In this document: piece after piece, positions 5,196 to 61,939 of the stretch | Numbering within the stretch: position 1 is the first letter of the stretch | Layout of the letters: each line of letters begins with the position of its first letter | Source of the DNA: an uncultured Desulfobacteraceae bacterium | Lineage (GTDB): Bacteria > Desulfobacterota > DSM-4660 > Desulfatiglandales > HGW-15 | Reading direction: 5' to 3' | Length of the DNA: 64,000 nt | NCBI GenBank assembly: GCA_964520425.1 | Contig: CAZFMX010000002.1 | Span: forward strand, 36,809-100,808 | The notes under the pieces: generated by a model | Database searches by the model: none | The model's input: only the letters and a program-made list of their open reading frames with translations | What the model was told of the DNA's origin: nothing | Made by a program: the position numbers and the translations under genes

Positions 5196-8057
5196 TCATT
5201 TACCATTCTTGTCCAGTACCGCCCTTACCTTACTCGCCAGATTCTTCGGTGTAAACGGTTTTTCGATAAACTCCACCCCTCGGGTCAGAATACCGTGATC
5301 CACAATGGCGTTACTAGTATACCCGGACATGAAAATCACCTTCACACGGGGATGAATTTTTTTCACCATTCCCGCTAGTTCCTTCCCACTCATCTTCGGC
5401 ATCACCACATCGGTTAGAATCAGATCAATCGAGCCGTCGTGGGCTTCGCTAACCCGTAAAGCATTTTCTCCGTTTTCAGCCTCCAGAACTCTATATCCAT
5501 TCTTCTTGAGCGAGTTTCGCGCAAGTTTTCGAACGCTGTCATCATCTTCCACAATCAAAATAGTCTCGGAGCCGCCAAACGCCTCCGCAAAGAGTTGATC
5601 TTCACTTTCCGGATCTACACTCCCCTTTGTCCTAGGAAGATAAACTTTAAATGTGCTGCCCTGCCCCAGCTCAGTGTAAACCCAGATAAATCCTCCGTTC
5701 TGTTTCACAATGCCGTAAATAGTGGAAAGACCCAGACCTGTACCCTTGTCACTCGCCTTAGAGGTAAAGAAAGGCTCAAATATGCGTTCCTGGGTCTCCC
5801 TGTCCATGCCAGTTCCGTTATCGTTTATAGCCAACTTCACATAACTACCGATCTGCCCCGCAACACCATGTTTGCGAAAAAAGTCCTCATCCAGTTCCAC
5901 ATTAGCCGTCTCAATGATAAGTTTGCCACCCTCGGGCATGGCATCCTTGGCGTTTACCACCAGGTTCATGATGATCTGCTCTATCTGCCCTGGATCGGCT
6001 TCAACGAGCCATAATTCAGGCGCTGCAATCACAGACATCTCAATATCTTCTCCAATAAGTCTGGAAATCATCTTACCCATGTCCGTTATTACTTCATTGA
6101 TATCCATTACCCTTGGCTGAATCAATTGCTTACTGCTAAAGGCCAGAAGTTGACGGGTCAGATCAGCCGCCCTCTCGCCGGCTTTCTTGATATCTTGTAT
6201 ATCCTCGAAAAGGGGATCTTTTTCGTGCAGAGTGGTCAGTGCGAGATGGCAGTTACCGATAATCGTCGTAAGAATGTTATTGAAGTCGTGGGCCACACCA
6301 CCTGCTAGAGTACCGACGGCCTCCATCTTCTGAGACTGGAAGAGCTGGGCCTGCAATGCATCACGGTCTTTTTCCGCCTCCTTCCGTTGTGTAATGTCTG
6401 TGACAATGCCATCGATTTCTTGAAAAATCCCTTCTTTGAAATGCGATTTCTTGCTGTCGCTAACCCAACGAAGACTTCCGTCCTTTGCAGTGATTCTGTA
6501 TTCATGTACCAATTCAGACGGCTTTTGTATTAATTCCAGGCTTTCACTAAAAAACCTTGCTCTATCACCAGGATGTATCAGCTCAACCCAATTCACTTTC
6601 CTAGACTCAAATTCATTAACTGTATACCCTGAAATGGATTCACTATTGCTTATGACTTCTGTTGACCAATCTGATTCTGCTCTGTAGACCATGCCTATGA
6701 CATTACTCACTAAAGTCCGGTATTTCTCCTCACTTTCAGCAAGAATATCATCCGCCTCTTTGCGCCCCACTGCAACTGCAAAAAGCTTGGCCAAATGTGA
6801 AACGACCTCCAAATCACTGTCTGAGAAGCCCTCTTTACAGTTTGCCAACGCCAATTGACCGACCAACCTGTCCCCAAGCAGGGCCGGAACGGATAGAAAG
6901 TTTCTGATTGGAATGTGTCCCGGAGGTAACCCTCCCGATGATTCGTGGTTATCGGGAGTGTTCGTGTAAAAAGCACCTCGCGTGTTGAGTGCGTGCCCCC
7001 ACAAATTCGGATATCGTCCGTCAGGGTCCAAGGGAAAAATAAAGCGCCTATCTTTTCCCGATACGTGGCATTCTTTGTCCATCATTTTGGTAATCGTGTA
7101 ACTGATATTCGCGCCGGTCTCTCTATCAATGACTGATACATAACCATGTTCACTACCGGTCAGCAATCTTGCGTATCGGAGAGTAGTATCCGTAATATCG
7201 CTAAGCGCATCGGACATTCCAACCATATTGCTCGACATTCTGGCCAAGGCTCTATTGATCTTCAGTCCGCGTTGAAGCAGCTCTTGCTCCTCTCTTTGCA
7301 CGGTTGTGTTCCGCGCATTTACGACGAGACCTTTTGGTTCATTGTTTGGACTTAAATAGGGATAGTAACGGATCTCCATGTATCTTCTTTCGCCTTCAGG
7401 GGAAACAACCCACCTTTCGAAGAAGACATTTTTGCCTTCAAGACACCTTTCGGCATTCGGCCTAATAACGCTTTCAAAGACCTCCTCCCCAAAAACCTCA
7501 CTCATGGAATGCCCGATTACCTCGTCCTTGACCAAACCAAACGACTTCGCATACGCATCATTTATAGCCAGATAAGAGAGGTTTTTATCAATTAAAGCCA
7601 GCATATCGGTGGAGCAGGAGACAATGCTCTCGAACTGGCGAAGCCTTTCCTCCGCCTGCTTGCGTTCTGTGATGTCAGTCCCTGAACTAAGATGCCCGAT
7701 GATGTCTCCTTCTTCATTCCTTAAAAGAGTATTGTGCCACAAGATTAGCCTTTCTTCTCCATGCTTTGTTAACACGGGATTCTCAAAATACTCTATGGAC
7801 TCTGTCTTCTCAGAGAGTATCGATTCTGAAACTCCCTTTACTTCATTTTTCAAACTCTCGGGAAGGAAATGATCAAACCAATTCTTTCCAATAATCTCCT
7901 CCTCCTCGTATTCCAAAATCTCACATCCCCTTTTATTTATTTGTGTGACATTTCCTTCAGCATTGATGGCTATCAACATTACTCCTGCCAAATCGAAGTA
8001 TGCCTGCAAGGTACTCACACGATTTAACAATTCTTCGTAGGACGGTTTTTCGGCCAT
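5196..8057 (-). CDS. Hybrid sensor histidine kinase (PAS-PAS-GAF-PAS-HisKA-HATPase-REC)
   Basis: GGVAHDFNN H-box, QIIMNLVVNA N-box, DNGTGM, FEPFFT, GTGLGL; C-terminal REC (VEDD, LTDVVMP, IEKPF). No transmembrane segment seen. Confidence 0.95.
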   Translation of the reverse strand: MAEKPSYEELLNRVSTLQAYFDLAGVMLIAINAEGNVTQINKRGCEILEYEEEEIIGKNWFDHFLPESLKNEVKGVSESILSEKTESIEYFENPVLTKHGEERLILWHNTLLRNEEGDIIGHLSSGTDITERKQAEERLRQFESIVSCSTDMLALIDKNLSYLAINDAYAKSFGLVKDEVIGHSMSEVFGEEVFESVIRPNAERCLEGKNVFFERWVVSPEGERRYMEIRYYPYLSPNNEPKGLVVNARNTTVQREEQELLQRGLKINRALARMSSNMVGMSDALSDITDTTLRYARLLTGSEHGYVSVIDRETGANISYTITKMMDKECHVSGKDRRFIFPLDPDGRYPNLWGHALNTRGAFYTNTPDNHESSGGLPPGHIPIRNFLSVPALLGDRLVGQLALANCKEGFSDSDLEVVSHLAKLFAVAVGRKEADDILAESEEKYRTLVSNVIGMVYRAESDWSTEVISNSESISGYTVNEFESRKVNWVELIHPGDRARFFSESLELIQKPSELVHEYRITAKDGSLRWVSDSKKSHFKEGIFQEIDGIVTDITQRKEAEKDRDALQAQLFQSQKMEAVGTLAGGVAHDFNNILTTIIGNCHLALTTLHEKDPLFEDIQDIKKAGERAADLTRQLLAFSSKQLIQPRVMDINEVITDMGKMISRLIGEDIEMSVIAAPELWLVEADPGQIEQIIMNLVVNAKDAMPEGGKLIIETANVELDEDFFRKHGVAGQIGSYVKLAINDNGTGMDRETQERIFEPFFTSKASDKGTGLGLSTIYGIVKQNGGFIWVYTELGQGSTFKVYLPRTKGSVDPESEDQLFAEAFGGSETILIVEDDDSVRKLARNSLKKNGYRVLEAENGENALRVSEAHDGSIDLILTDVVMPKMSGKELAGMVKKIHPRVKVIFMSGYTSNAIVDHGILTRGVEFIEKPFTPKNLASKVRAVLDKNGK

Positions 8058-8722
8058 TGGACAAGACTCCTATGATACAAAATGCATGAGGTTGTACCTT
8101 CGACTTGATGGTCCATGTACACGAGAACAGACAATCAGAGTTTTGCCGTTTGCGTTTCCCTCTGATTTTAATCGAGAGGATCTGGATAATGCTCTTTCAC
8201 GCACTTCGGACAAACCCTTTGATCGGATTTAGCTTTGGAATCTCACTGGTAATGGCAACGATTCTGCCCATACGTATACTCTGGCCATCCTAAACACTGT
8301 GTTTCAAGAGTGTCTTGACGACAAACTAGCCAGATCTCGAATTGTCTTCTTAACGGAATTTCAACTAAAGTAAGACCTGTCGTGGAAGAAGAATTATCCT
8401 TAATTAAAAATATTATAGTTATAATGAACTAAATCTGTCAATAGACATTTAGAGCTTATCCACCATCGGCGCTCGAAATTGACCAGCCTCGAAAGAGAAG
8501 TCAAGAATATCTATAGGTTCACCGGCAGAAAAGAGGGCTCAGATGAGTGGGGCATTATTACATACCGGCTCAAAAACTAGGATTTTTTAGACACGGTGCT
8601 ATTCACAATATAGAAGACGAGAGATAAAGGAAGTCTTGGAAGAAAAATAGTGTGGATTGCGCCTTTCGATAGATTAAAAGAAAAGAAAAAAGGAACATGT
8701 GGGGATTATGAGGTATAGAGGT

Positions 8723-11041
8723 TCACTCTTTTTCCCTCCACCAGACAGGTCCCTCTTTTGTGTCTATCACCTCGATACCCATGTCCTTCAGTTCTTGACG
8801 AATCCGATCTGCCGCTGCCCAATTCTTCTTTTTCCTGGCCTCTTCTCTCTCTTTTACCTGTTTCTCCACTTCTTCTGCTGGTTTAGAAGGCTCTAGATCC
8901 AGAATGTCCAGAACCAAGTTAAGTTCCTGAAGTCCCTCTTCCGCCTTCTGTTTGTCCGGAGTTGAGAGACCCTTTTGATCCATGACACAGTTGACCTCTC
9001 GTGTGAACTCGAAAAGCGATGCCAGGGCGAGAGCCATGTTCAGGTCATCGTCCATAGCTTCGATAAACTTATGTTTCAGATTGTAGAGCAGTTGATCCAT
9101 CTCCGGGTGATGGCCACCGGGAGAGGAGGACCGGAGCTTTTCGACAAACAGGTCCAGATGTACGACCGTATTCTTGGCTGCATTGAGGCTTGACCAAGAA
9201 AAAGATATGGGTTTTCGATAATGACGGTTAAGAAGCCAAAATCGGATCACCCTTCCGGTGTAACCTTGCTCCAGGATTCGCCTAATGGTATAGTCATCGT
9301 GATCGGAACCATGGGATGGCTTTTTCCCTTCAACCATCACCAGCTCATTGTGAAGCCAATAATGGGCAGGCGGTTTCCCGGTGACCGCCTCGCTGATGGC
9401 GATACTGTTTTCATGATGTGGAAAGATCAGGTCAGATCCACTCATATGTATATCATAGGTATCTCCCAGGAGCTTCATTGCCATGGCCGGGCATTCCAGG
9501 TGCCAGCTCGGCCGGATGTTTCCCCACTTGGTCTTGTAGAATATGCCTTTCTTCAGTTCATGGAGAGTGGCTCTCTTGAGAAGGGTAAAGTCCCGGGGAT
9601 TCTCTTTTTCATATTCTTCCAGATCCACTGTCTTTCCCAAACGAATCTTGTCAAGGTCTATCTTGGAAAGCTTCCCATAATCTGCGAATCGAGATATGTC
9701 GAAATACACAGATCGCAATTTTTCATAGGCGTATCCCTTGTCCATGAGTTTCTGGGCTACTCTGATCATGTCCTCCACATACTCGCTGGCCTTGGGATAC
9801 TCTGAAGCCCTCTTGATTCTCAGGATATCTAGGTCTCTTAGGAACTCCTGATAGAAACCTTCTGTAAAATCCTTGAGGGATTGGCCTGCCTTATCTGCCC
9901 CTTCTATAGTACGATCATCCAGATCCGTTACATTCATGATGTGGGTGACATTAAACCCCTTGAACTCCAGATAGCGCCTTAATACATCTGAAAAGACAAG
10001 ACGTCGGCTTTGCCCAATATGAATCAACTGGCAGAGAGTGGGGCCACACGTATAGATCTTAATCCTTTTTTCAAGAATCGGGACAAACTCCTCTTTTTTT
10101 CGCGTCATCGTGTTGTATAGGCTTATTCCCGATTTTTCTTTGGCCACAAAAAGTGGGGTACTGAGATACCTCTCTCCTCCATCAGGCAGAATGACAACGA
10201 TCCGGCCTTGTTTCATTTCCTTGGCAATCTTCAGGGAAATGGCCATGGCCGCTCCCGAGCTCATGCCCACAAACATCCCCTCTTCTTTGGCCAACATCCT
10301 GGCCATGTGATAGGCCTCTTCGTCTTCAATATTGATTATCTGATCCGCCCGGCTCTTTTCAAATATCCCAGGGCAGTAGGATTCCTTCATGTTTTTCAGG
10401 CCTTGGATCTTATGCCCCAGGTAGGGCTCCACACCCACGATTTCCACTGACGGTTTAAGCTCCTTGAAGCGTCTTGAAAGCCCCATTAGAGTCCCTGTGG
10501 TTCCCATGGTGGCAACAATCACATCCAGATTCCCGTTGGTCTGCTCCCAAATTTCCGATGCCGTCCCATAATAATGGGCTCTCCAATTTGCTTCATTGTT
10601 GAATTGGTCGGCCAGCCAATATTTCTCGGGTTCTTCCCGAATCAGATTGTAGACAAACTCAATGGCCCCGTCTGTCCCCAGATGAGTAGGTGTAAAGACT
10701 AAATCCGCGCCCATAGCTCGCAGGACCTTTTTTCGCTCTTCACTGACCGCCTCAGACATGACCAAAAGGATCCGGTACCCCTTGACCGCTGCGATGAGAG
10801 ACAGCCCAATCCCAGTATTCCCGCTGGTAGCCTCAAGGATAACCTTCTCCTTTGTCAGCTGTCCCCTCCTTTCCCCTTCCTCAATCATATTTAGGGCGGG
10901 TCGGTCTTTGATGGAGCCACCCGGGTTGAAAGACTCCAGTTTTGCCAAAATTTGGACATCCTTGTTAGAGTTCAGCCGTTTGATGGGAACCAGCGGTGTC
11001 CCGCCAATATGGTCAAGGATATTTCCTAGCTTCTTTGCCAT
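8723..11041 (-). CDS. cysM-cysS: Fusion of a PLP-dependent cysteine synthase (CysM/CysK family) and a cysteinyl-tRNA synthetase
   Basis: N-terminal ~300 aa: SIKDR, EATSGNTG, GTTGT, GMSSG, PDGGERYLS. C-terminal part: CGPT..HIGQ, NVTDLDD, RPSWHLEC, DLIFPHHEN, AMDDDLN and the anticodon-domain motif ADRIRQEL. One uninterrupted ORF. Confidence 0.93.
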   Translation of the reverse strand: MAKKLGNILDHIGGTPLVPIKRLNSNKDVQILAKLESFNPGGSIKDRPALNMIEEGERRGQLTKEKVILEATSGNTGIGLSLIAAVKGYRILLVMSEAVSEERKKVLRAMGADLVFTPTHLGTDGAIEFVYNLIREEPEKYWLADQFNNEANWRAHYYGTASEIWEQTNGNLDVIVATMGTTGTLMGLSRRFKELKPSVEIVGVEPYLGHKIQGLKNMKESYCPGIFEKSRADQIINIEDEEAYHMARMLAKEEGMFVGMSSGAAMAISLKIAKEMKQGRIVVILPDGGERYLSTPLFVAKEKSGISLYNTMTRKKEEFVPILEKRIKIYTCGPTLCQLIHIGQSRRLVFSDVLRRYLEFKGFNVTHIMNVTDLDDRTIEGADKAGQSLKDFTEGFYQEFLRDLDILRIKRASEYPKASEYVEDMIRVAQKLMDKGYAYEKLRSVYFDISRFADYGKLSKIDLDKIRLGKTVDLEEYEKENPRDFTLLKRATLHELKKGIFYKTKWGNIRPSWHLECPAMAMKLLGDTYDIHMSGSDLIFPHHENSIAISEAVTGKPPAHYWLHNELVMVEGKKPSHGSDHDDYTIRRILEQGYTGRVIRFWLLNRHYRKPISFSWSSLNAAKNTVVHLDLFVEKLRSSSPGGHHPEMDQLLYNLKHKFIEAMDDDLNMALALASLFEFTREVNCVMDQKGLSTPDKQKAEEGLQELNLVLDILDLEPSKPAEEVEKQVKEREEARKKKNWAAADRIRQELKDMGIEVIDTKEGPVWWREKE

Positions 11042-11364
11042 GGGTTTCTCTCCGCGACTGTTGCAAAAGAGGCGATTCTGTAGAGTTATAATAATAACCC
11101 CTTCTTTGCAATAGTGAATTTATCTTAGTTTCCGTCCTGCGTGAACCAAGGTCCACTGCGATACTCTCTTTCTCTCACATTCGCTCGGTCGCCAGGCACT
11201 GAGATGACAGAGGTCATAGAGGACACAGACGGGTCTGACGTCCAAAGGCGCTCCTGACAGGAGCCCTCCCTTGCAGCTCTTCGCCTCAAACCACTGAAAA
11301 GAAAACGACGAAGGAAATAATTCTTGGACTCAGAATCTAAAACACGCTAAGTGGCTACAATCCC

Positions 11365-13060: not shown

Positions 13061-14740
<1,680 letters not shown>

Positions 14741-14791
14741 TACCCTTGACGCATAGACCGCTGGACAAAATCCAAACCGTATTGTAAAATT

Positions 14792-14833
14792 AGATTGTAT
14801 CTGGAAGGACACTTCCGGGTACAATCTTTTTTT
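14792..14833 (+). terminator. Rho-independent terminator of groESL
   Basis: AGATTGTATCTGGAAG-gaca-CTTCCGGGTACAATCT (16 bp, two G-U pairs) followed by a T run. Confidence 0.8.
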
Positions 14834-14855
14834 GTTAAAAAAAGGAAGGAATTCT

Positions 14856-15827
14856 ATGAACGAGAATAATCTTCCGACCATATTGGTGACAGGAGCAGCC
14901 GGGTTCATTGGGTTCCATCTCAGCAGGGGACTTTTAGAAAAAGGATACCGGGTCATCGGTTTAGACAGCATGAATGAGTACTATGATGTCTCTCTGAAGA
15001 AATCCCGTCTTGAGATTCTAAAACCCTATCCGGATTTCGTATTCTGTAAAGAAGACATTCAAAATCTGTCCGGGCTCAAGAAGATCTTTCAGACCCACAC
15101 CATTGATAGGGTCTGCAATCTAGCCGCCCAGGCTGGTGTAAGATATTCTCTGGAAGATCCGTTTTCTTATCAAAAAAGCAACCTGGAAGGATTTCTCAAT
15201 CTTCTTGAAATGGCCCGTGAATACCAGGTTCAGAATTTTGTCTATGCCTCATCCTCCTCTGTCTATGGAAGCAACGAAAAGACCCCGTTTAGCGTGGAAG
15301 ATCGGGTGGACACACCCGTTTCCCTGTATGCTGCCACTAAAAAAGCCAATGAATTGATGGCTCACGCCTACCATCATCTGTTTGGTTTCCCCTGTACGGG
15401 CCTAAGATTTTTTACCGTCTATGGACCGTGGGGCCGTCCGGATATGGCCCTTTTTCTCTTTACGGACGCCATTGTGAACAACAGACCCATCGATGTCTAC
15501 AATTACGGCCGGATGCGACGGGATTTCACTTATATAGATGATATTGTCGACGGCACCATAGCCGCTATTGAAAAGCCTCATGCCTATGAGGTCTTTAATC
15601 TGGGGAACTCCAATACTACCGAGCTTATGGAGTTTATTCGGGTCATTGAAGAGGAACTGGGGATGGAAGCAGAAAAGAATATGATGCCCCTCCAGCCAGG
15701 GGACGTGCCGGCCACATCAGCAGATATCCAGAAATCAAAGGAGATGCTGGGATTCAGTCCTAAGACATCTATTCGGGAGGGGGTTCACAATTTCTTGGTC
15801 TGGTACCGGGGATATTATAAAGTCTAA
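14856..15827 (+). CDS. NAD-dependent epimerase (UDP-glucuronate 4-epimerase-like)
   Basis: GAAGFIG, LAAQAGVRYS, YAATK, RFFTVYGPWGRPDMA. Start moved to ATG 14856, which follows a GGAAGGA SD. Confidence 0.9.
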   Translation: MNENNLPTILVTGAAGFIGFHLSRGLLEKGYRVIGLDSMNEYYDVSLKKSRLEILKPYPDFVFCKEDIQNLSGLKKIFQTHTIDRVCNLAAQAGVRYSLEDPFSYQKSNLEGFLNLLEMAREYQVQNFVYASSSSVYGSNEKTPFSVEDRVDTPVSLYAATKKANELMAHAYHHLFGFPCTGLRFFTVYGPWGRPDMALFLFTDAIVNNRPIDVYNYGRMRRDFTYIDDIVDGTIAAIEKPHAYEVFNLGNSNTTELMEFIRVIEEELGMEAEKNMMPLQPGDVPATSADIQKSKEMLGFSPKTSIREGVHNFLVWYRGYYKV

Positions 15828-52056: not shown

Positions 52057-53430
52057 TCACCGTTTGACAAGCCGGCTCTGAATCCCCTTTGACGCCAGTT
52101 CAATATGCTCTTTTTCAGCGTCCTCCTTATAATAAAAAGCTCCGCTAAAAAGAAGAGATTCACCGTTATCTCCTTCAATTACATAGGGACAGTACCCCAA
52201 CTCTACAAGGGATAGGTTCTTTTCTGTGAGTTCTTCATCCGAACTGAAAAGGCCTATGAGGTTAGCATAAAGGACATACCTGGATCTCCCCTCAGTTATC
52301 TGATTTTTCTCGATAAATGCGTTTACTTCGTCTTTTGTCTGGAAATACCCGGCCAAGACCCTGTACCATACACCCTTCTCCCCAAGATCGACTCTCACCC
52401 AATATGGAGACAATCCCTTCTTTTTAAAAATGGAAATGGCTTCCTGAATGCGATCTATGTTTTTATAGGAGCCCAAATAGATGGAATAAGGATATGATTT
52501 TCTTTCATCCCTCTGAAACATCTCGGTCTTTGCCGCCTCGTCACTATGAGTCGACCTGGAATGTTGAGGATTTGCAGGAGAAACCTCCTGTTTTGCGGTG
52601 ACAATGGTTTCTTTGGGTGTCTCAGAAACAGGGTTATCGGGCTTTTTGGGGGTCGACCCTTCAATCATCCCCTTTTCCGGTCCGATTGGCGGTGGTTCAG
52701 GAGTTTTGTTCTCATTATCCAGTTTTACGGTCTCAACTGCCGCTGCCGAGGTCGTTGGGATGGTGACATCCTGCTTCACAGGGGCAGGATTCTCAATCAT
52801 TTCGTTTTTCGCCAACGCGATCGCCTGATCGTCATCAAATAGGTATAATGGCGCTAAACGAGTTCCCAAAAAGGTCAAAAGAACGCCCATAACAAAAGGC
52901 AATCCAATATTTAAGGTCGTCAAACTAAAAATGGACCTTCTTTGAGGATGGCTACTCACCTCTTGGGGGAGAACAAAACCTTCAGAAACAGCAGGGCTTT
53001 CTCTTTTCACAACATGGCTTTGGGAAATCCTTTTATCCCTGTTTCTCTGAATGGCAGGTACTGACCTTTTTACAGAGACACTCTTTTGAGGTTTCTCTTG
53101 TACATGGGCTTTGATCCTGGAACTCTTTATAGTGGTGTTCCCGGACACAGCAGGCTTCCTGACTTGAGTCTTCCTTTTTTTTGTCCTGGCCTCTATTTCG
53201 GAATTAAAAGGCCGCATCTGCCTCCCTCGATGATTTATTGGTATCCGCTTTTGAGCGTTTTTCATCGGTCTGACGGCTGCGCTACTCTCGCTTGTTGCTG
53301 ATTTAGGGCGTGTTTTCTCTTTGACGCGCCTAATCTTGGATTCCTTTGATTCTTCAAACAGGCTTGCCAGCAGTTCTATCGTATTAGGAGACCCCTTGCT
53401 CTCTTCATGGGCATTATCAATGTTGTTCAT
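52057..53430 (-). CDS. Single-TM protein with two C-terminal SPOR-like domains
   Basis: Basic low-complexity N-terminus, TM LNIGLPFVMGVLLTFLG, YSIYLGSYKN..YWVRVDLGEKGVWYRVLAG and YANLIG repeats. Start at ATG 53430 after an AAGGA SD. Confidence 0.82.
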   Translation of the reverse strand: MNNIDNAHEESKGSPNTIELLASLFEESKESKIRRVKEKTRPKSATSESSAAVRPMKNAQKRIPINHRGRQMRPFNSEIEARTKKRKTQVRKPAVSGNTTIKSSRIKAHVQEKPQKSVSVKRSVPAIQRNRDKRISQSHVVKRESPAVSEGFVLPQEVSSHPQRRSIFSLTTLNIGLPFVMGVLLTFLGTRLAPLYLFDDDQAIALAKNEMIENPAPVKQDVTIPTTSAAAVETVKLDNENKTPEPPPIGPEKGMIEGSTPKKPDNPVSETPKETIVTAKQEVSPANPQHSRSTHSDEAAKTEMFQRDERKSYPYSIYLGSYKNIDRIQEAISIFKKKGLSPYWVRVDLGEKGVWYRVLAGYFQTKDEVNAFIEKNQITEGRSRYVLYANLIGLFSSDEELTEKNLSLVELGYCPYVIEGDNGESLLFSGAFYYKEDAEKEHIELASKGIQSRLVKR

Positions 53431-53455
53431 TCGGTTATCCTTCTTTTCAAGAATG

Positions 53456-53740
53456 TCATAAACAAAGACCCGATTGCTGCTGTTTCTCATCGAATTGCCT
53501 GTGGGTGATCCTTCGTTCAAAGCGGTGGCCGCTCCTCAGATCAGAAAAATTTCTGTTATATAACGCTTTTCTCCGATCCTTGCCATTTCTCCGGTCCCGG
53601 CTTAACCCATAGTCTTTTCCAAGCCTTCTCTCTGGAATATGATTTGAATAGGCAAAACGCCTGCGATCTTGTCCTGAACGTCTGCCGCCATTATCCGTGT
53701 GAAATGATCTTAACATTCCGATATTTTTATACATAACCAT
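53456..53740 (-). CDS. Small Arg-rich protein with (D/E)RR repeats
   Basis: RRSGQDRRR, ERRLGKD, DRRNGKDRRK, ERR; AGAGG SD. Confidence 0.7.
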   Translation of the reverse strand: MVMYKNIGMLRSFHTDNGGRRSGQDRRRFAYSNHIPERRLGKDYGLSRDRRNGKDRRKALYNRNFSDLRSGHRFERRITHRQFDEKQQQSGLCL

Positions 53741-53785
53741 ATACCTCTTTCCGTATACTACTGACGGGCATCGTCGATAAGATGC

Positions 53786-53965
53786 CTATTGTATCACTCC
53801 CCAAGAACTCATTTTTTTGTTGTTATAGATATCTTCCTTATAAATCTGGAGCCACGATCTTCTTTCACCCATGAAAACACTTCGCAGCTTTCTCAGTGAT
53901 ATCTTGACCTTCTTCCTTTCTCCGGAACAGTCCGGGAATGAATTCCGACATTCTGTTTCCGACAT
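53786..53965 (-). CDS. Possible small basic protein (degenerate ERR-type)
   Basis: ORF open from 54025; best SD (AGAGG) precedes ATG 53965; contains SGERKK and GERRS. Confidence 0.4.
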   Translation of the reverse strand: MSETECRNSFPDCSGERKKVKISLRKLRSVFMGERRSWLQIYKEDIYNNKKMSSWGVIQ

Positions 53966-54061
53966 TCTTCCTCTTTTAGGATCCGCTATGATCTTCATGG
54001 CTTTCATCTTATTGATCTTTGTCACAAAGTAAAATGTTGCTGCCCTTCTGACTCATCTACC

Positions 54062-54077
54062 AGCAAGCAGTGTGCCA
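54062..54077 (-). promoter_or_regulatory. Sigma54 (-24/-12) promoter
   Basis: Minus strand TGGCACA-ctgc-TTGCT, an essentially perfect consensus. IHF-like TTTCAA-ccag-TTA at 54117-54129; palindrome ATGAAATTTCAT at 54188-54199. Confidence 0.8.
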
Positions 54078-54273
54078 AGAAGGGCGGATGAGAGATAAAT
54101 CGATTTATAGATATAATTTCAACCAGTTATACAACAAGCAGAAATGCGTGACAGGACTGTAAAGAAAAAGCTTCCCTTAGAAAGGAAATGAAATTTCATA
54201 TACTGGTAAGAATTTACTCAGATTTCGGGGTAGAAAAACGAAAAGAGGAGGCAGGAGAACCAAAACGGTTCTC

Positions 54274-57200
54274 TTATCTTTCAACGAGTTGGCTCTTGAT
54301 TCCCTTTGTATTCAAATCAAGCTGCGCTTTCTCTGCATCGGCCTTTTGATAAAACGCCCCCGTGAAGAGGTGAGATTTGCCATCAGATGCCTCAATGACA
54401 TATGGACTGAATTCCAGATTCAAAAGAGAAAGGCGCATCCGGTCAAGTTCCTCTTCCGAACTGTAGGTTCCTATGAGATTGGCATAGGTTGTGCGCCTGG
54501 ACTCTCCATCCGCTATTTGATAGTTATTGATGAATGTCTCGGCCTGGTCCTTGGTTTGGAAACAGCCGATATAGACCCTGTACCATATCCCTTTCTCTCC
54601 AAGGTCGGTCTTCACCCAGTAAGAAGCCCCCTTTGTTTTCAATTCGGAAGCCGCTTTCCGGGCACGATCAAGGTTTTTGTAGGAGCCGACATAGACAGAA
54701 TATGGATAGGAGAATTCAGGGGCAGCCTCAGGTATAACCCCTTGTTTCTTATGGGTTTTCACTTGAGGCGCAACATTCTTGACCGAACCCGAACCTACCA
54801 ATGCACCCGGTTCTATCTTCCGGACTTCGGCATCTACAAGCTGCCGCTCTTTGACGTATTCCTCTGCCTCGCTCCTGGTTTCGAATTGTCCTGTAAAGAC
54901 CCTGTACCATATTCCCTTGTCTCCCAGATCCACTTCTTGCCAATAGAGAGATGACAGGCCGTTCTCGTTATATTTGGAAATGGCCTTTTCTGTACTTTTA
55001 AGGGTGCTATAAGAGCCAAGGTATACCGAAAAGGGATGAGATATCGATGTCTTTATCTGATTTGACTCAGCTTTTACAGAAGCGTCACCGGGCGGAGGGG
55101 GGGTTGCGGGTTCAGGGGGTTGGGGCTGGACTTCTAGGTCAGTAGTGATAAGGGTTCTCTTCGGTGTCGTGGAGGTCGTGTTCTGATCTAGAGGAGAAGA
55201 TCCCTCAACACTCTCTTTCATCGCCAGGATGGTTGGAGGTTCAGAGGTCGAAGGTTTTACCTCCGGGATAACGGCCTTAACGGTCTCCTTCTGAGTCTCA
55301 GGACCTGCATTTCGCTTCCTGGGAACATGAGCACGAACGATTTCCTTCTCTACTGAAGCAGGAGTGGAAGGTTGAATTCCTTGTCTTGTAACTGGGGACT
55401 TCTCTCTCAAAGTCTTAGGGGTAACTCCCTGCTTCTTGGGAGAAGAGACCTCAACAGACTTGTCACTCATCAGCTTCTGCGCTTGCTCATGCTTGAAGAA
55501 ATCAAGGGGTGAATATCGGATACCCAAAATGATTGCCAGAATTCCAAATAGGATAAGGGGCAGCCCAATTCTTATGACCTTTGAGCGGTGTCCGGATCTC
55601 CTTATAAGCTGGAGATCCTCCTCAGTAAGTGCAACACCTTCCTCCAGGTCCGCGGGTTCCTCTTTCTCAGGTTTTACGGATTCAGAAACCCTCTCAAATT
55701 CATCCTCTCCCTCTGGCACGGATCCTTCTTCAGCTTCTGGTTTATGATGATGCTCCTCCTCATCCGTGCTGACTTTAGAATCCTCGGAGGACATTAAACT
55801 GGGCATGAGTATTTCTTTTAATCGAGGCTCTTCCTTTGCCGGCTCTGATGAGTCCGAAAGAGGCTCTATCTCCATGCCAACCGCCTCAGAAGTCCTTTCT
55901 ATATCTTCCTTCTTGTCTTCAAGTATCGGCCTCTCCTTGTCTTCTAGTATATGATGGACTTCAAACACATTTGCCTCGATCCCGGAAGTCTTGGAGAGTA
56001 TCGGTGTAAATGCGGCAGGTTTCTCTTGGGATAGGGTCTTCTCCTTCGTCATCTCGGCATTCGCAGAATCTGAAGGCTGCTCCTCTACAAAATCGATGGA
56101 TTGAGGAGCTTCCTCAACATCTTCTTTCCTGTCTTCTGGTATTGACTCCTCTTCATATTCAAATGTGGATTCAGGATATATTTCTTGCTTGCTTGCTTCA
56201 GGCAAGGAGTCCTCTATGATTATTGCACTGGGGGCTGCAGGTTTCTCTTGAAATAGAGGGCCTTCTTCTGCTGCTCCATCAATCCCTTCAATATCTGCAG
56301 AAACCTCTTCCTTTAGATCGTCGCTGTCAAGGGCTATTCCAACATCGACCTCTTCTTCCTCAGATGCCGAGCTTTCCCCAGCGGATGCTTTTTCGTCTCC
56401 TTGTTTTTCACTCCCTTCAAGCGCGGAAATCATCGTACTGAGAGCGGATTTCTCCAAAAGCTCCGTGATCTCCCCATCCGCCCCGGTGATGCTCTCAATA
56501 TCTGAGGAAGTCTCTTCCCTGGAATCATCACTATCAAAAAAAATCTCAATACCGGTATCCTCTTCCTCAGGTACCGGACTCTCCTCAGCCGATGCTTTCT
56601 TGTCTCCTTTCTTCCCACTCACTTCGAGTTCAGAAATCATGGAATCAAGTGTGGTTTTTTGCAGAACCTCCGTGATATCCTCATCCGCCCCGGTAATGCT
56701 CTCGATATCTGAGGAAGTCTCTTCCCTGGAATCATCACTATCAAAAAATATCTCAACACCGGCATCCTCTTCCTCAGGTACCGGACTCTCCTCAGCCGAT
56801 GCTTTACCGTCTCCTTTCTTCCCACTCATTTCGAGTTCAGAAATCATGGAATCAAGTGTGGTTTTTTGTAGAACCTCCGTGATATCCTCATCCGCCCCGG
56901 TAATGCTCTCGATATCTGAGGAAGTCTCTTCCCTGGAATCATCACTATCAAAAAATATCTCAACACCGGCATCCTCTTCCTCAGGTACCGGACTCTCCTC
57001 AGCCGATGCTTTACCGTCTCCTTTCTTCCCACTCATTTCGAGCTCGGAAATCATGGAATCAAGTGTGGTTTTTCCCATGATCTCTGTGATTTCCTCGTCT
57101 GTTCCGGGAATTACCTCAATGTCCGCAGGAGGCCTGCTCCGGTCATCCTCCTTAGAAGTTTTCTCGCCACCATCTTTTTTTATCTTGAGTCGATACCTTT

Positions 57201-57795
57201 CCTCAGGTGACAGTTCGTGATAGCGGGTATTTCTGCTCCCTTTGATTCCTGCAGCCATGGAGATCATGGAATTAAGAACAGACTGATTCAGGGATTCGGT
57301 CCTCTCATCACCCGATCCGGTGATTGTCTTGGAAGGGGGGGGCTCATTCTTTGGGCCACCAGGTCTAACAATCCTCTTACCGCCACTCTCACTGGGTTTG
57401 AAACCCGGTTTGGACCCAGCCGCTGATTTACGGCGTAACTTCTGACGTCTTTGTTCAATCCTGGAGTCCTTTTGAGCTACTGAACCGGGCAGGGGTCTTT
57501 TCGGGGGAAGGGTTTTGCTCTGGGTTGCTCCGGTACTCTTTACTGATGGCGAAGGACGCCTCAGTTTCTGGGAAGTAGTCTGGGAAGTTGCCTTACCCTG
57601 ATCTCTTCTCTCTCTCGATACGACCCTCTTCTTCACCACCGACTTGGGGCGGATTCTCCGGCGGACTACCTTAATTTCGGAGCTCTTTGTATCCTTGAAA
57701 AGGCTTTCCAACAACGACGCAGTGTCGTCGCCAGGATCGTATCTTCCCTCAGAGTCATCCTTCTTATCGTTCATTTGCTTCTCTGTAGTTGGCAA
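54274..57795 (-). CDS. Large single-TM protein with acidic tandem repeats and three C-terminal SPOR-like domains
   Basis: Basic N-terminus, acidic 69-aa repeats, TM IGLPLILFGILAIILG preceded by RRSGHRSK, and three SPOR-like units (FSVYLGSY, YSVYVGSY, YANLIGTY). Confidence 0.85.
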   Translation of the reverse strand: MPTTEKQMNDKKDDSEGRYDPGDDTASLLESLFKDTKSSEIKVVRRRIRPKSVVKKRVVSRERRDQGKATSQTTSQKLRRPSPSVKSTGATQSKTLPPKRPLPGSVAQKDSRIEQRRQKLRRKSAAGSKPGFKPSESGGKRIVRPGGPKNEPPPSKTITGSGDERTESLNQSVLNSMISMAAGIKGSRNTRYHELSPEERYRLKIKKDGGEKTSKEDDRSRPPADIEVIPGTDEEITEIMGKTTLDSMISELEMSGKKGDGKASAEESPVPEEEDAGVEIFFDSDDSREETSSDIESITGADEDITEVLQKTTLDSMISELEMSGKKGDGKASAEESPVPEEEDAGVEIFFDSDDSREETSSDIESITGADEDITEVLQKTTLDSMISELEVSGKKGDKKASAEESPVPEEEDTGIEIFFDSDDSREETSSDIESITGADGEITELLEKSALSTMISALEGSEKQGDEKASAGESSASEEEEVDVGIALDSDDLKEEVSADIEGIDGAAEEGPLFQEKPAAPSAIIIEDSLPEASKQEIYPESTFEYEEESIPEDRKEDVEEAPQSIDFVEEQPSDSANAEMTKEKTLSQEKPAAFTPILSKTSGIEANVFEVHHILEDKERPILEDKKEDIERTSEAVGMEIEPLSDSSEPAKEEPRLKEILMPSLMSSEDSKVSTDEEEHHHKPEAEEGSVPEGEDEFERVSESVKPEKEEPADLEEGVALTEEDLQLIRRSGHRSKVIRIGLPLILFGILAIILGIRYSPLDFFKHEQAQKLMSDKSVEVSSPKKQGVTPKTLREKSPVTRQGIQPSTPASVEKEIVRAHVPRKRNAGPETQKETVKAVIPEVKPSTSEPPTILAMKESVEGSSPLDQNTTSTTPKRTLITTDLEVQPQPPEPATPPPPGDASVKAESNQIKTSISHPFSVYLGSYSTLKSTEKAISKYNENGLSSLYWQEVDLGDKGIWYRVFTGQFETRSEAEEYVKERQLVDAEVRKIEPGALVGSGSVKNVAPQVKTHKKQGVIPEAAPEFSYPYSVYVGSYKNLDRARKAASELKTKGASYWVKTDLGEKGIWYRVYIGCFQTKDQAETFINNYQIADGESRRTTYANLIGTYSSEEELDRMRLSLLNLEFSPYVIEASDGKSHLFTGAFYQKADAEKAQLDLNTKGIKSQLVER
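56270..57126 (-). repeat. Intragenic 207-bp (69-aa) tandem repeat, about 4 copies
   Basis: Units 56863-57069, 56656-56862 and 56449-56655 are nearly identical; a diverged fourth unit lies below and a partial unit above. Shadow ORFs recur at exactly 207-bp spacing (56618/56825/57032). Confidence 0.95.
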
Positions 57796-58976: not shown

Positions 58977-61265
58977 TTAAAGGATGATATCATTTATTCT
59001 CTGACTAAGATCGGGGGAGTAACTGAGGACCTTTCCGTCGACTCCCAAAACAGGCACCACTCCCATGAGGGAGTTTGTAACAAAGACATGGGTAGCTGTA
59101 AAAAGTCCGTCAGGATCTACTCTTTCTTTTTGGACCGAGTAACCCCAATCGAGGAGGAGTTTACATACTTTTTCTTCCATAATCCCCGGCAGGACATGTG
59201 GCGATACGGGCCGAACAACCTTCTTGCCTGTGATCAGCAGAATATTGGCCGTATTGGTCTCAGAAATACTCCCATCGGTATTCATGATCAACGCTTCGTC
59301 AACACCTTGGTTTTTCGCCCATTTTCCGGCCAAATAGTAATACAGGTAGTTGAGGGTCTTGTGATCTGCGAGTGGTGAATAACGGGGGTAGGGATAGGTT
59401 GCGAGCCATAATCCTGGTTTGTTCGTCCCTGACAAGCGGTGGATGTACGGCCTCGCGGTCAAAATGACCTTGTGATCAAATGGAGGCTTTTCCCGCCCCC
59501 CCCACGCGGCAATCACCTTGACCGCCACAGTCTCTTTTTCATACCTGTTTTCATGGATCACCTGATCAATAATTTCTCTCCACGAAAGATCAGGCTCCGG
59601 GCGATCAAAAAGGGCTTGCCATGTACGAGCAAACCGAGCCATATGGGCATCCAGGTGTTTAGCCTCCCCTTGATCGACCCGTATGGTTTCGAAGAATCCA
59701 TACCCGTATTGAAACCCAAGATCAGTTATCTTTATGACGCCCTGATCAAATGGATGGATGGACCCGTTCACCCAAGCCACTTCTCCTGCACGTTCTCTTC
59801 TGCCTTTTTCTCCAAATACACCCATGAGGGTCTTACCCTTTTGCAACGTCTCGTCATACTCATCCGAAGGCTCAGAGTCATAGACAATACCTCCTCCCAC
59901 GGAAAAAAGCATGTTCCCATCACAAATCGTCGCCGTGCGAATAGCAATAGACAGGTCCAAGGTATCATGGAAACTCACATATCCTATTGAACCGGTATAG
60001 ACGTGACGCCTGTGTGGCTCCAGTTCGTCAATAATTTCCATGGCTCTTATCTTGGGACAACCGGTGATCGATCCCCCTGGAAACGTTGCCTTCAGTAGGT
60101 CTACGGAATCGCAAGTGCCGGATAGTGTTCCTTCAACAATCGAGACTAAGTGGTACACATTCTCATATACTTCTACCCTTTTGTGTTGTCTCACCCGGAC
60201 GGAACCTCCCTCGCAAACCCTTCCCAAATCGTTTCGTAAAAGATCAACGATCATGGAAAGCTCTGCATCATCCTTTCTGCTTTCCTCCAATTCAATGGCG
60301 AGGGCCCGGTCTTCGGCTTCTGTCTCTCCTCGGGGCCTGGTTCCTTTGATGGGTCTGGTCTCAACAGACCCTTGCTGCCTCTTCAGAAATCTCTCTGGTG
60401 ATGTCGAGATAATCTGGTGATCATGAGCATGGATGTAAGCAAAAAAAGGAGCCGGATTTGCATCATAAAGGGAAAGGAAGAGGCTGAAAGGATCCCCATC
60501 AAAGTCTGTTTGAAACCGCTGTGACAGATTCACCTGATAGACATGGCCGGAAGTGATATAGGCCCTGATCTTTTCGATCTGAATCATGTAATCAACCCTG
60601 TCAAAATTGGAGCTAAACCCACGCAGACTTCCCTTAAAGGGGCCTCGAATCAAAGGTCTTGTATCAAGGACGGATCGAAACCATTCCAAATCGTCATTCA
60701 GGCTTTCTTGCCCATCACATACACGATTCGAAACAGAAAGCCATGTGTGCCCGCTTCTTTTGTCCTGGGTCACAATGACCGACGGGGCGAAAAGGCAGAT
60801 ATCCGGAAGGCCAAGGTCATCAAACGATGTACGGGGGAGATTCTCCAGGAAATCCTTTAGATCATATGAAAAGTACCCCATAAGGCCGGACCCAATAGGG
60901 ACCGGTAGGCCGGGATCTTCCATGTGGAAGGTTTTGAGTATCATACGAAGCGTGTCAAAAGGATCTGCTTCGAATCGAATAACCTGCTCTCCGATGGTAA
61001 GGACCATCTGACGGCCACGGCCCAAGAAGCCAAACCACGGTTTTGTGCCAAGGATATGATATTGAGCACAATCGAGTTCACCTCCGCTCAGAAGGACGAC
61101 CGTCCCGGGGATTGAAGCAAACCGGCAAGAAAAATCCTGAAAGGGAGCGCCCGGATTAATCTCCTCCAGGTGAATATTCCCGATCTCCCCCGCTATTTTT
61201 CTCAGGTCATACACGGTGCACCCTCTTACTGCAGGAATTGAGATGCCTCCCAGCCATCCTCTCAC
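58977..61265 (-). CDS. pabB: Aminodeoxychorismate synthase component I fused to ADC lyase (PabB-PabC)
   Basis: YQVNLSQR, SPERFL, TRPIKGTRPRG, MIVDLLRNDL, FPGGSITGCPK, GGGIV; then a class IV PLP domain (YGYGFFETI, HKTLNY, ETNTAN, LPGI). GTGA overlap with the pabA stop. Confidence 0.93.
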   Translation of the reverse strand: MRGWLGGISIPAVRGCTVYDLRKIAGEIGNIHLEEINPGAPFQDFSCRFASIPGTVVLLSGGELDCAQYHILGTKPWFGFLGRGRQMVLTIGEQVIRFEADPFDTLRMILKTFHMEDPGLPVPIGSGLMGYFSYDLKDFLENLPRTSFDDLGLPDICLFAPSVIVTQDKRSGHTWLSVSNRVCDGQESLNDDLEWFRSVLDTRPLIRGPFKGSLRGFSSNFDRVDYMIQIEKIRAYITSGHVYQVNLSQRFQTDFDGDPFSLFLSLYDANPAPFFAYIHAHDHQIISTSPERFLKRQQGSVETRPIKGTRPRGETEAEDRALAIELEESRKDDAELSMIVDLLRNDLGRVCEGGSVRVRQHKRVEVYENVYHLVSIVEGTLSGTCDSVDLLKATFPGGSITGCPKIRAMEIIDELEPHRRHVYTGSIGYVSFHDTLDLSIAIRTATICDGNMLFSVGGGIVYDSEPSDEYDETLQKGKTLMGVFGEKGRRERAGEVAWVNGSIHPFDQGVIKITDLGFQYGYGFFETIRVDQGEAKHLDAHMARFARTWQALFDRPEPDLSWREIIDQVIHENRYEKETVAVKVIAAWGGREKPPFDHKVILTARPYIHRLSGTNKPGLWLATYPYPRYSPLADHKTLNYLYYYLAGKWAKNQGVDEALIMNTDGSISETNTANILLITGKKVVRPVSPHVLPGIMEEKVCKLLLDWGYSVQKERVDPDGLFTATHVFVTNSLMGVVPVLGVDGKVLSYSPDLSQRINDIIL

Positions 61266-61939
61266 ACCGATCCCGAGGTATCAATAGAGAGTCTTTGGCA
61301 ATGTGTCCCGTCAGGGTAGGAGTCGATACGATCCTCCGGCAGTGGTTTTACTTTGCAGGAGTTCAGAGATCCCAGCCCAAGAAAATTTTCCACCACCAAA
61401 AAACCGTACTCCGTGAGAAAGCTTTCAGGATGGAACTGGACACCATGAAGAGGAAACGAGGGATGCGATATTCCCATGACCACCCCGTCCTGGCTCCGGG
61501 AGGTAACCAGTAGCTCATTCCCCTTCAACCGAACAACAAGTGAATGGTAGCGGGCCGCAGCAAAAGGAGAAGGAATGCTCTTGAAAAGCCATTGTTGACG
61601 ATGTTCAATGAGACTTGTCTTCCCATGCATGGGAATGGGGGCCCGAACCGTTTTCCCGCCGAAGGCCTCATTCATGCATTGCATTCCCAGGCACACCCCC
61701 AAGATAGGGACTTTGCTGCAAAAGGCCTTAATCAATTGAACAGATATCCCCGCATGGGCCGGGTCTTTAGGTCCCGGACTGATAAGGATGTAATCAGGAT
61801 CATGCTCTTCGACCTCTTCTATTGATATTTTGTCACATCGATGCACCTCAATATCAAGGTCATAGTGCATGAACATCTGGACCAAATTGTAGGTAAAGGA
61901 ATCGTAATTATCGATGACCAGCAGCTTTGCCGATTTCAT
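61262..61939 (-). CDS. pabA: Glutamine amidotransferase PabA/TrpG
   Basis: IDNYDSFTYNL, SPGP, LGVCLGMQ, RYHSL, QFHPES; GAGGTG SD. Confidence 0.93.
   Translation of the reverse strand: MKSAKLLVIDNYDSFTYNLVQMFMHYDLDIEVHRCDKISIEEVEEHDPDYILISPGPKDPAHAGISVQLIKAFCSKVPILGVCLGMQCMNEAFGGKTVRAPIPMHGKTSLIEHRQQWLFKSIPSPFAAARYHSLVVRLKGNELLVTSRSQDGVVMGISHPSFPLHGVQFHPESFLTEYGFLVVENFLGLGSLNSCKVKPLPEDRIDSYPDGTHCQRLSIDTSGSV

Follow-up and report, generated by a model that had tools for sequence, protein, structure and literature searches.

In the 64-kb stretch of DNA from an uncultured Desulfobacteraceae bacterium that was analyzed here (the window), one gene encodes a protein in which a CysM-type cysteine synthase, dependent on pyridoxal 5'-phosphate (PLP), is joined to a module that resembles cysteinyl-tRNA synthetase (CysRS). 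We propose that this gene probably specifies a cysteine synthase that bears a tRNA-Cys-binding pseudo-synthetase and works in the manner of HisZ or GCN2, rather than the housekeeping CysRS. More tentatively, the dead CysRS domain may read the GCA anticodon and the 3'-end of tRNA-Cys and set the activity of the fused synthase according to the charging of tRNA-Cys; we regard this more specific proposal as plausible but somewhat short of probable. The property conserved in the clade would appear to be a tRNA-Cys-reading, CysRS-shaped surface attached to CysM, and not adenylation.

The gene was first singled out from its letters alone, and the original prediction that one open reading frame (ORF) of 772 residues joins a cysteine synthase to a full-length CysRS is borne out. 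The frame runs from ATG to stop on the minus strand, and Pfam places PALP at residues 8-287 (E = 1.5e-71), tRNA-synt_1e (PF01406) at residues 319-623 (E = 2.3e-87, 293.6 bits), and DALR_2 (PF09190) and CysS_C (PF23493) in the C-terminal part. The NCBIfam model TIGR00435 (cysS), with a cut-off of 340 bits, is passed with 409 bits. The CysRS-like module begins at LYNTMTRKKEEF, which corresponds to residues 4-15 of E. coli CysRS. Neither a stop codon nor a frameshift separates the domains in the contigs of two sediment metagenomes. In run X2, one 11-kb contig spans positions 8500-11300 with no differences and no indels, so the fusion is not an assembly artifact, and the assembly of run X1 agrees with the window gene sequence. 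An assembly chimera or a frameshifted gene pair was therefore rejected, since two independent metagenome assemblies carry the identical uninterrupted gene. Between positions 9656 and 9748 the run X1 assembly splits into short alternative contigs, one with two differences, which suggests strain-level variation within the CysRS-like core. A search of the PDB returned no chain spanning both halves of the fusion. The AlphaFold2 model (67 sequences) has a mean predicted local distance difference test (pLDDT) score of 80.7 and a predicted template modeling score of 0.70. Its regions of low confidence are the CysM lid (residues 208-224), the linker (290-300, pLDDT < 50), and part of CP1 (444-484, despite high conservation); the mean pLDDT is 61 at residues 571-580, the former KMSKS loop.

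The motifs of the CysRS-like half were compared with those of E. coli CysRS (PDB 1li5). The module shares with the canonical enzymes (E. coli CysS, 1li5/1u0b, TIGR00435) the fold and the order of Rossmann domain, CP1, helical bundle, and anticodon domain, and it retains 59 of the 75 positions that are invariant among them. In E. coli numbering, Cys28, Thr68, Trp205, Cys209, and His234 are kept, and Arg168, Trp184, Gly226, Glu238, Gln241, and the KMSKS-LGN loop are changed. The alignment confirmed the reported degeneration of KMSKS: KMSKS-LGN has become KKPSH-GSD, with His577 at the position of Lys269 and the LGN lost as well. Other departures that had been read from the letters must be stated more narrowly. 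HIGH is indeed HIGQ, but this is a small deviation, because 55 of the 82 canonical CysRS sequences sampled carry HIGN and not HIGH; His37 and Gly39 are found in all 82. DIHGGG is DIHMSG, but the first glycine of GGG varies in canonical CysRS, and the clade-specific change is that of the second, Gly226, which is invariant there and is Ser534 in the window protein. The zinc ligands had been described as retained, and this holds for three of the four: Cys28 is Cys332, within TCGPT just upstream of HIGQ, Cys209 is Cys517, and His234 is His542 within DIHMSGSDLIFPHHENSIA. The zinc site is not fully kept, because the fourth ligand, the second glutamate of PHHENE (Glu238), is Ser546 in the same segment and A, T, S, D, or V in the subfamily of the window protein.

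Conservation in the CysRS-like module was counted over 81 species-level members of the family. A survey of the KMSKS loop across homologous fusions, which the original prediction had proposed, found the loop to differ among relatives that are 70-90% identical and to be unconstrained across the 81 members; Lys269 is kept in essentially none of them and Lys266 in 46. His37 is kept in 41 members, Gly39 in 61, Cys28 in 71, and Cys209 in 72; none of the 81 lacks His234 or Trp205. At the 33 loci that have the neighborhood of the window gene (a divergent upstream epimerase gene and/or groES), His37 is lost in 21, where the substitute is P, D, R, N, T, G, or E. Unlike canonical CysRS, the family as a whole conserves neither HIGH nor KMSKS, and its module is joined to CysM. 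Much of the cysteine/zinc pocket is retained in most members, the window protein among them. The comparison indicates that motif degeneration is a property of the whole family and is not private to the window gene.

The anticodon domain is kept, as had been claimed: PF23493 is matched and the equivalents of six anticodon residues of E. coli CysRS are all present. We take Asp451 to be one of the anticodon contacts. The mean identity of the C-terminal domain to that of the window is 45% across 78 species. Within it, conservation over the 81 members reaches at least 95% for Arg423, Arg427, Asp436, Arg439, and Asp451, and position 432, a tryptophan in E. coli, is always aromatic; the six positions are invariant or almost so in every fusion class. 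Five of the six residues are among the 8 invariant positions of the 59 in the domain (hypergeometric P = 6e-5). The anticodon residues persist in the form from Desulfovibrio ferrophilus despite the loss of all catalytic motifs. In the structure 1U0B, Arg423, Arg427, Trp432, and Asp436 contact the anticodon base G34 (PMC12684709), and Arg427, Trp432, Asp436, and Arg439 have been targeted to alter anticodon recognition, with position 439 being called distant from the anticodon (PMC13449415).

No stretch of the CysRS-like module is better conserved than CP1, on the acceptor-stem side, which is also more conserved in this family than in the canonical enzymes. One of its motifs is fixed as G[KA]TVDLD in all of the fusions, as opposed to the canonical GARV, with Arg168 changed to threonine. 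A neighboring CP1 motif is reported to read the first acceptor base pair (PMC5389517). The fixed G[KA]TVDLD could mean that the preference for the acceptor stem is altered or that the partner is a distinct tRNA-Cys isoacceptor.

The ratios of nonsynonymous to synonymous substitution rates (dN/dS) were computed for the window gene against a 92%-identical relative (L005). The ratios for the CysM module, the CysRS-like core, CP1, and the helical bundle with the anticodon domain were determined to be 0.089, 0.078, 0.053, and 0.158, respectively. The CysRS-like module is not a decaying remnant, because the ratio of its core equals that of CysM, and recent pseudogenization was rejected on the same grounds. 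Taken with the motif counts, these ratios indicate that the CysRS-like module is under strong purifying selection, but not on the ATP-activation motifs.

The N-terminal half is predicted to be a catalytically intact cysteine synthase of the CysM type (PLP fold type II). The catalytic set is complete in the window protein (PLP lysine, Asn loop, Gly-rich phosphate loop, and the equivalent of Ser272), and its CysM-like motifs are the PLP lysine Lys45 (positions 10907-10909), SIKDR, the Asn loop TSGNTGIG (residues 72-79), DQFNN, GTTGT, HKIQGLKNM (residues 210-218), and GMSSGAA. The PLP lysine, TSGNTGIG, DQFNN, GT[TS]GT, HKIQGLKNM, and GMSSGAA are intact in every class of fusion among the 81 members. 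The score of 365 bits with the NCBIfam cysKM subfamily model TIGR01136 passes the cut-off of 344, and that of 370.8 bits with the cysM equivalog TIGR01138 is under the cut-off of 394.2 and is no equivalog-level match. The best PDB matches are the CysM enzymes of E. coli (2bhs) and Salmonella (2jc3), which share the fold-type II catalytic motifs and a lid loop of CysM length and align without a gap. CysK-type structures can be aligned only with a gap of approximately 7 residues. The M. tuberculosis CysM (3dki), an O-phosphoserine (OPS) sulfhydrylase that was also used for comparison, gives a weaker alignment, with all of the PLP fold-type II catalytic motifs in common with the window module. 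The suggestion that the synthase loop lies nearer to CysM and OPS sulfhydrylases than to CysK is thus supported. The lid differs from that of CysM in that HKIQGLKNM consists of a CysK-like HKIQG followed by LKNM, and Lys217 aligns with Arg210 of E. coli CysM. The N-terminal half would form cysteine from an activated serine, either O-acetylserine or OPS, and reduced sulfur, with sulfide, thiosulfate, or thiocarboxylate as the candidate sources.

The two halves also occur as separate neighbors. Four unfused members of the degenerate clade were examined (P0287/P0138, P0142, P0145, and P0139), and each of them either overlaps a PALP gene or is found 2-4 nt downstream of one; in the split forms the fusion junction is replaced by a stop codon with a start 2-4 nt later. 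The three partner PALP products that are fully readable carry the HKIQGLK.. signature and end in ...ERYLST.L; the fourth is a short fragment at the end of a contig. Because the unfused members adjoin cysM-like genes, the fusion can be understood as the joined form of a conserved pair of cysM and cysRS-like genes. At one of the split loci (L085:6553-7293), a ThiF/MoeB-family E1-like gene (246 aa, with a C-terminal CxxC) follows the pair after 16 nt. This gene, which was not seen at the other three split loci, may point to a connection between some members and cysteine synthesis with a sulfur carrier (thiocarboxylate).

The mechanism that we propose for the window protein can be put as follows. 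The C-terminal part would still be folded as a CysRS. It keeps the residues that read the GCA anticodon together with the acceptor-side surface of CP1, and the ATP-activation machinery of the clade (HIGH, KMSKS, and Glu238) has been released from selection. With three of the four zinc ligands of the cysteine pocket retained in the window species, the pseudo-synthetase would bind tRNA-Cys and possibly also cysteine, or the cysteinyl end of the charged tRNA, at the zinc pocket. Binding of tRNA-Cys would couple cysteine synthesis to the supply or the charging state of this tRNA, either through activation by the uncharged tRNA or through inhibition by the charged tRNA or by Cys. An earlier suggestion, that a weakened CysRS had been repurposed as a sensor of Cys or tRNA, fits the comparative data from the anticodon residues, CP1, the dN/dS of approximately 0.08, the CysM motifs, and the unfused members adjacent to cysM. 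Cys-tRNA-Cys for translation would be made by a separate canonical CysRS encoded elsewhere in the genome.

HisZ and GCN2 are the systems to which this proposal can be compared. In GCN2, a eukaryotic protein, a degenerate HisRS-like domain is fused to a kinase and binds many uncharged tRNAs. In both GCN2 and the window family, a degenerate synthetase-like domain is fused to an effector enzyme, with tRNA binding as the signal (proposed for the window family), but here a metabolic enzyme takes the place of the kinase, and the contacts that have been retained are those specific to the GCA anticodon. HisZ has no anticodon domain and senses free histidine, whereas in the window family, for which regulation is proposed from the sequence, no feature is kept more strictly than the residues that contact the anticodon. 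Both are aminoacyl-tRNA synthetase (aaRS) paralogues without the synthetase reaction (a prediction in the case of the window family) that are tied to the cognate biosynthetic enzyme by fusion or adjacency. As in the HisZ type, a synthetase paralogue with unconstrained catalytic motifs is here physically coupled to the enzyme that makes its cognate amino acid. HisZ, a HisRS paralogue that serves as the regulatory subunit of HisG, is the precedent for an aaRS paralogue that controls the synthesis of its own amino acid (PMC9437257).

Several observations weigh against a tRNA-binding pseudo-synthetase. The window protein is among the least degenerate members, with HIGQ, Cys332, Cys517, His542, and Lys574 in place and the TIGR00435 cut-off passed. 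The canonical set was partly filtered on K[MIL][SAG]KS and PHH..E, so part of the invariance at positions 238, 266, 269, and 270 follows from that selection; no filter was applied to His37, Gly39, Gly226, or Gln241. The K266A/K269A mutants of E. coli CysRS supported translation in the PURE system (PMC5660078), and the loss of Lys269 alone is therefore no proof of inactivity. A tblastn search with E. coli CysRS against loci L001-L084, which are small parts of genomes, found only the fusion, and overall the window and 88 such loci yielded no second cysS. Finally, the fusion gene was not found in any of the RNA-seq runs searched, and no transcription data were found. The fusion might instead be truly bifunctional, still making Cys-tRNA-Cys, perhaps slowly or with noncanonical transition-state residues, and channeling new cysteine onto the tRNA, as the original prediction had offered as one of its two options. 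We consider this unlikely. It would agree with the retention of Cys332, His341, Gly343, Thr372, Trp513, Cys517, His542, and Lys574, with a complete anticodon domain, with the closeness of HIGQ to the common HIGN, with the margin of the TIGR00435 score, with the very short linker, with the activity of the KMSK Lys-to-Ala mutants (PMC5660078), and with the existence, in a Nanoarchaeota metagenome-assembled genome (MAG), of a fusion whose motifs are all canonical. It is disfavored by the alteration of Glu238, Gly226, Gln241, and the entire KMSKS-LGN loop, by the variation of that loop among relatives of 70-90% identity, by the absence of the HIGH histidine from about half of the family and from 21 of the 33 positional orthologues, and by the loss of zinc ligands in other members. 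A function that depended on adenylation could not survive such losses, and yet the module is under purifying selection.

The same pattern of conservation bears on two further explanations, each of which we judge to be improbable. The module might carry out an ATP-independent chemistry on tRNA, such as cysteinyl transfer to an acceptor, in the way that cyclodipeptide synthases use aminoacyl-tRNA, or delivery of the aminoacyl end to the PLP domain for β-replacement, in analogy to SepCysS but on the basis of a fold-type II enzyme. The anticodon and CP1 surfaces and the residues of the 3'-end pocket (DxDD, WH, FPHHEN) are conserved where the ATP motifs are not, the short linker sets both active sites on one rigid body, and class I aaRS-like proteins that use aminoacyl-tRNA provide a precedent (PMC2922099). 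However, the carboxylate-binding TSGNTGIG and DQFNN of CysM are invariant, which points to a free amino acid as the substrate; SepRS is not known from these taxa in the surveys consulted, some members lose the zinc/cysteine pocket too, and no acceptor-making genes are conserved nearby. Alternatively, the module could be a sensor of free cysteine that acts through the zinc pocket in the style of HisZ, or a structural or oligomerization scaffold, with no role for tRNA. Three zinc ligands, Thr68, and Trp205 are retained in most members, and CysM-type enzymes are not known to be under the usual control by a complex with CysE. HisZ itself operates without tRNA (PMC9437257). Against this stand the invariant residues of the poorly conserved C-terminal domain, most of which contact the anticodon, and their persistence where the zinc/cysteine pocket is entirely lost, which is hard to explain without tRNA.

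If the module is a pseudo-synthetase, the genome should hold a second, canonical cysS. The tblastn search with E. coli CysRS against the window and L001 returned only the fusion. A search with the canonical representative P0148, a guess at the CysRS of Desulfobacterota, retrieved relatives from Zixibacteria and Acidobacteriota, with none on the chromosomes of 4,195,354 and 3,677,055 bp. In Desulfobacterales, a wild-type cysS has been reported alongside cysS* (PMC5389517). For orthologues that lack His37 or zinc ligands, such as that of D. ferrophilus, a separate canonical CysRS follows by logic.

The family is large and, as had been anticipated, already present in the databases under another name. 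Among its homologues are at least 120 full-length fusions with 69-89% identity from Desulfobacteraceae, Thermodesulfobacteriota, and "Deltaproteobacteria" MAGs, named cysteine--tRNA ligase in the source records. When one genome per GTDB species was scanned, at least 486 loci were found to encode a relative, and the best 80 of these (54-92% identity) are almost all from Desulfobacteraceae or Desulfobacterales. Representatives at 50% identity form a graded series from a canonical-motif fusion to a form that has lost every catalytic motif. The classes include fusions that bear KMSRS (P0121 and P0280), the window type with KKPSx and without Glu238, fusions without Cys209 or without Cys28, and the protein of D. 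ferrophilus (WP_126381224.1, named "cysteine synthase"), from which Cys28, His37, Cys209, His224, and KMSKS are all gone. In a neighbor-joining tree the degenerate forms make up one clade apart from canonical CysRS. The fusion of the Nanoarchaeota MAG (P0123, MFW6014224.1, 768 aa) joins CysM to a CysRS with canonical HIGN, Glu238, and KMSKS, and it is placed with canonical CysRS in this rough tree. It is probably independent of the window clade, and it is possibly a truly bifunctional fusion in a DPANN archaeon.

Table 1. Features of the fusion gene, with positions in the window
Feature	Position	Strand	Basis
Whole coding sequence, CysM-type cysteine synthase + CysRS-like module, 772 aa	8723..11041	-	ORF, domains, uninterrupted contigs X1/X2
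CysM-like PLP module, residues 8-298	10148..11020	-	NCBIfam, PDB alignments, motifs
Linker, residues 299-305	10127..10147	-	E. coli CysRS alignment; ~7 residues
Rossmann/CP1 core, residues 306-625	9167..10126	-	PF01406, TIGR00435, 36% identity to E. coli CysRS
HIGH-equivalent HIGQ, residues 341-344	10010..10021	-	E. coli CysRS alignment
CP1 (acceptor-stem side), residues 430-512	9506..9754	-	Family conservation
WHLEC (513-517; Trp205/Cys209 equivalents) + DIHMSGSDLIFPHHENSIA (530-548)	9398..9505	-	Alignment
KMSKS-equivalent KKPSH, residues 573-577	9311..9325	-	E. coli CysRS alignment
Helical bundle + anticodon domain region	8732..9166	-	PF09190, PF23493
Anticodon residues Arg732, Arg736, Trp741, Asp745, Arg748, Asp760 (E. 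coli Arg423, Arg427, Trp432, Asp436, Arg439, Asp451)	8762..8848	-	
Putative sigma-70-like promoter TTCACT-16-TATTAT, 9/12, ~50 nt upstream of ATG	11091..11118	-	Consensus match only

In addition to the putative promoter (Table 1), the ATG of the fusion gene is preceded by a GGAG at a distance of 9-12 nt, and a scan with Rfam near the gene found no riboswitch, T-box, or other regulatory RNA. Long plus-strand ORFs are antisense to the fusion gene at positions 9221-9805, 10208-10450, and 10758-11114. Comparable antisense ORFs occur in 57 related loci, which conserved codon structure would predict, and these ORFs are most likely not genes.

The genes next to the window gene encode an epimerase, GroES/GroEL, and a histidine kinase. 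A conserved operon partner of the window-type gene was rejected, as only the divergent epimerase gene and groES/groEL recur across related loci. The histidine kinase gene (5196-8057) encodes a PAS/GAF hybrid histidine kinase-receiver protein of 953 aa on the same strand as the fusion, and it is separated from it by a gap of 665 bp (8058-8722). This gap contains a 12/12 match to the sigma-70 consensus (TTGACA-18-TATAAT, 8441..8412, minus strand), and the histidine kinase gene therefore probably has its own promoter. On the complete MAG chromosome CP070840.1 (L001), two groES-groEL pairs flank the fusion at 6554-8372 and 14325-15754, with both groEL calls apparently shortened (490 and 374 aa), and a SPOR protein is encoded directly downstream of the fusion. 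In the window, two adjacent SPOR-domain proteins, one of 1173 aa, are encoded at 52057-57795. A fast-evolving ORF of approximately 340 aa is found directly downstream of the fusion, on the same strand, at L054:5280-6296 and at the corresponding place in approximately 19 loci (e.g., L057, L061, L068, L073, and L083). This ORF has no Pfam match, is absent downstream of the window gene, and accompanies fusions of the Desulfonema/Desulfococcaceae type, which are 56-58% identical to that of the window; its product is possibly a partner specific to this class. The only tRNA gene in the window is that for tRNA-Gln. Farther away, an ORF of 762 aa (58977-61939) combines a chorismate-binding (PabB/TrpE-like) domain with a class IV aminotransferase (PabC-like) and is preceded by a glutamine amidotransferase gene with an overlap of 4 nt; it is probably a fused aminodeoxychorismate synthase/lyase.

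The window protein was also compared with the proteins that are known to derive from CysRS. MshC has retained the ATP motifs and works independently of tRNA. Membership in MshC was rejected, since the window protein scores 167.9 bits with TIGR03447 against a cut-off of 485.1. MshC and CysRS* are, like the window family, derived from CysRS, and CysRS* comes from the same order, Desulfobacterales (PMC9437257, PMC5389517). CysRS* has no anticodon domain and is linked to selB*/selC* (PMC5389517), whereas the window family keeps this domain and is linked to cysM. An assignment to CysRS* was rejected because of the anticodon domain and the identity of the neighboring genes. In CARS, CysRS is likewise tied to PLP and sulfur chemistry, but the PLP of the window fusion belongs to a separate, ordinary CysM domain. 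The cysteine persulfide synthase activity of CARS needs Lys73, Lys76, Lys266, and Lys269 as PLP sites (PMC5660078), and a persulfide synthase of this type was rejected since these positions are occupied in the window protein by Arg, Glu, Lys, and His, respectively. Our search of the literature and of curated families found no paper or dedicated family that describes a fusion of CysM with a pseudo-CysRS, and no model in NCBIfam is devoted to it. For CysRS, a 2022 review of aaRS paralogues names CysRS* and MshC alone (PMC9437257), and our literature search for CysRS-like paralogues turned up no others.

The sequences of these fusions are already public; as a family, they would be an addition to the regulatory or pseudo-enzyme modules derived from aaRSs. 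Fusions that pass TIGR00435 are named cysteine--tRNA ligase in hundreds of MAGs, and they can be miscounted as housekeeping CysRS in marker-gene analyses and metabolic reconstructions. If the proposal made here is correct, the window family would join MshC and CysRS* as the third class of CysRS paralogue, and would be a rare case of a bacterial pseudo-synthetase that is wired to the biosynthetic enzyme of its own amino acid, for which tRNA, and not only the free amino acid, is the likely signal. It would be a bacterial counterpart, for a single amino acid, of the principle known from GCN2 and HisZ, widespread in the sulfate-reducing Desulfobacterota (at least 486 species genomes). It would also offer a testable model for how cysteine synthesis may be controlled in sulfate reducers that live in sulfide, without the usual CysE-CysK complex.

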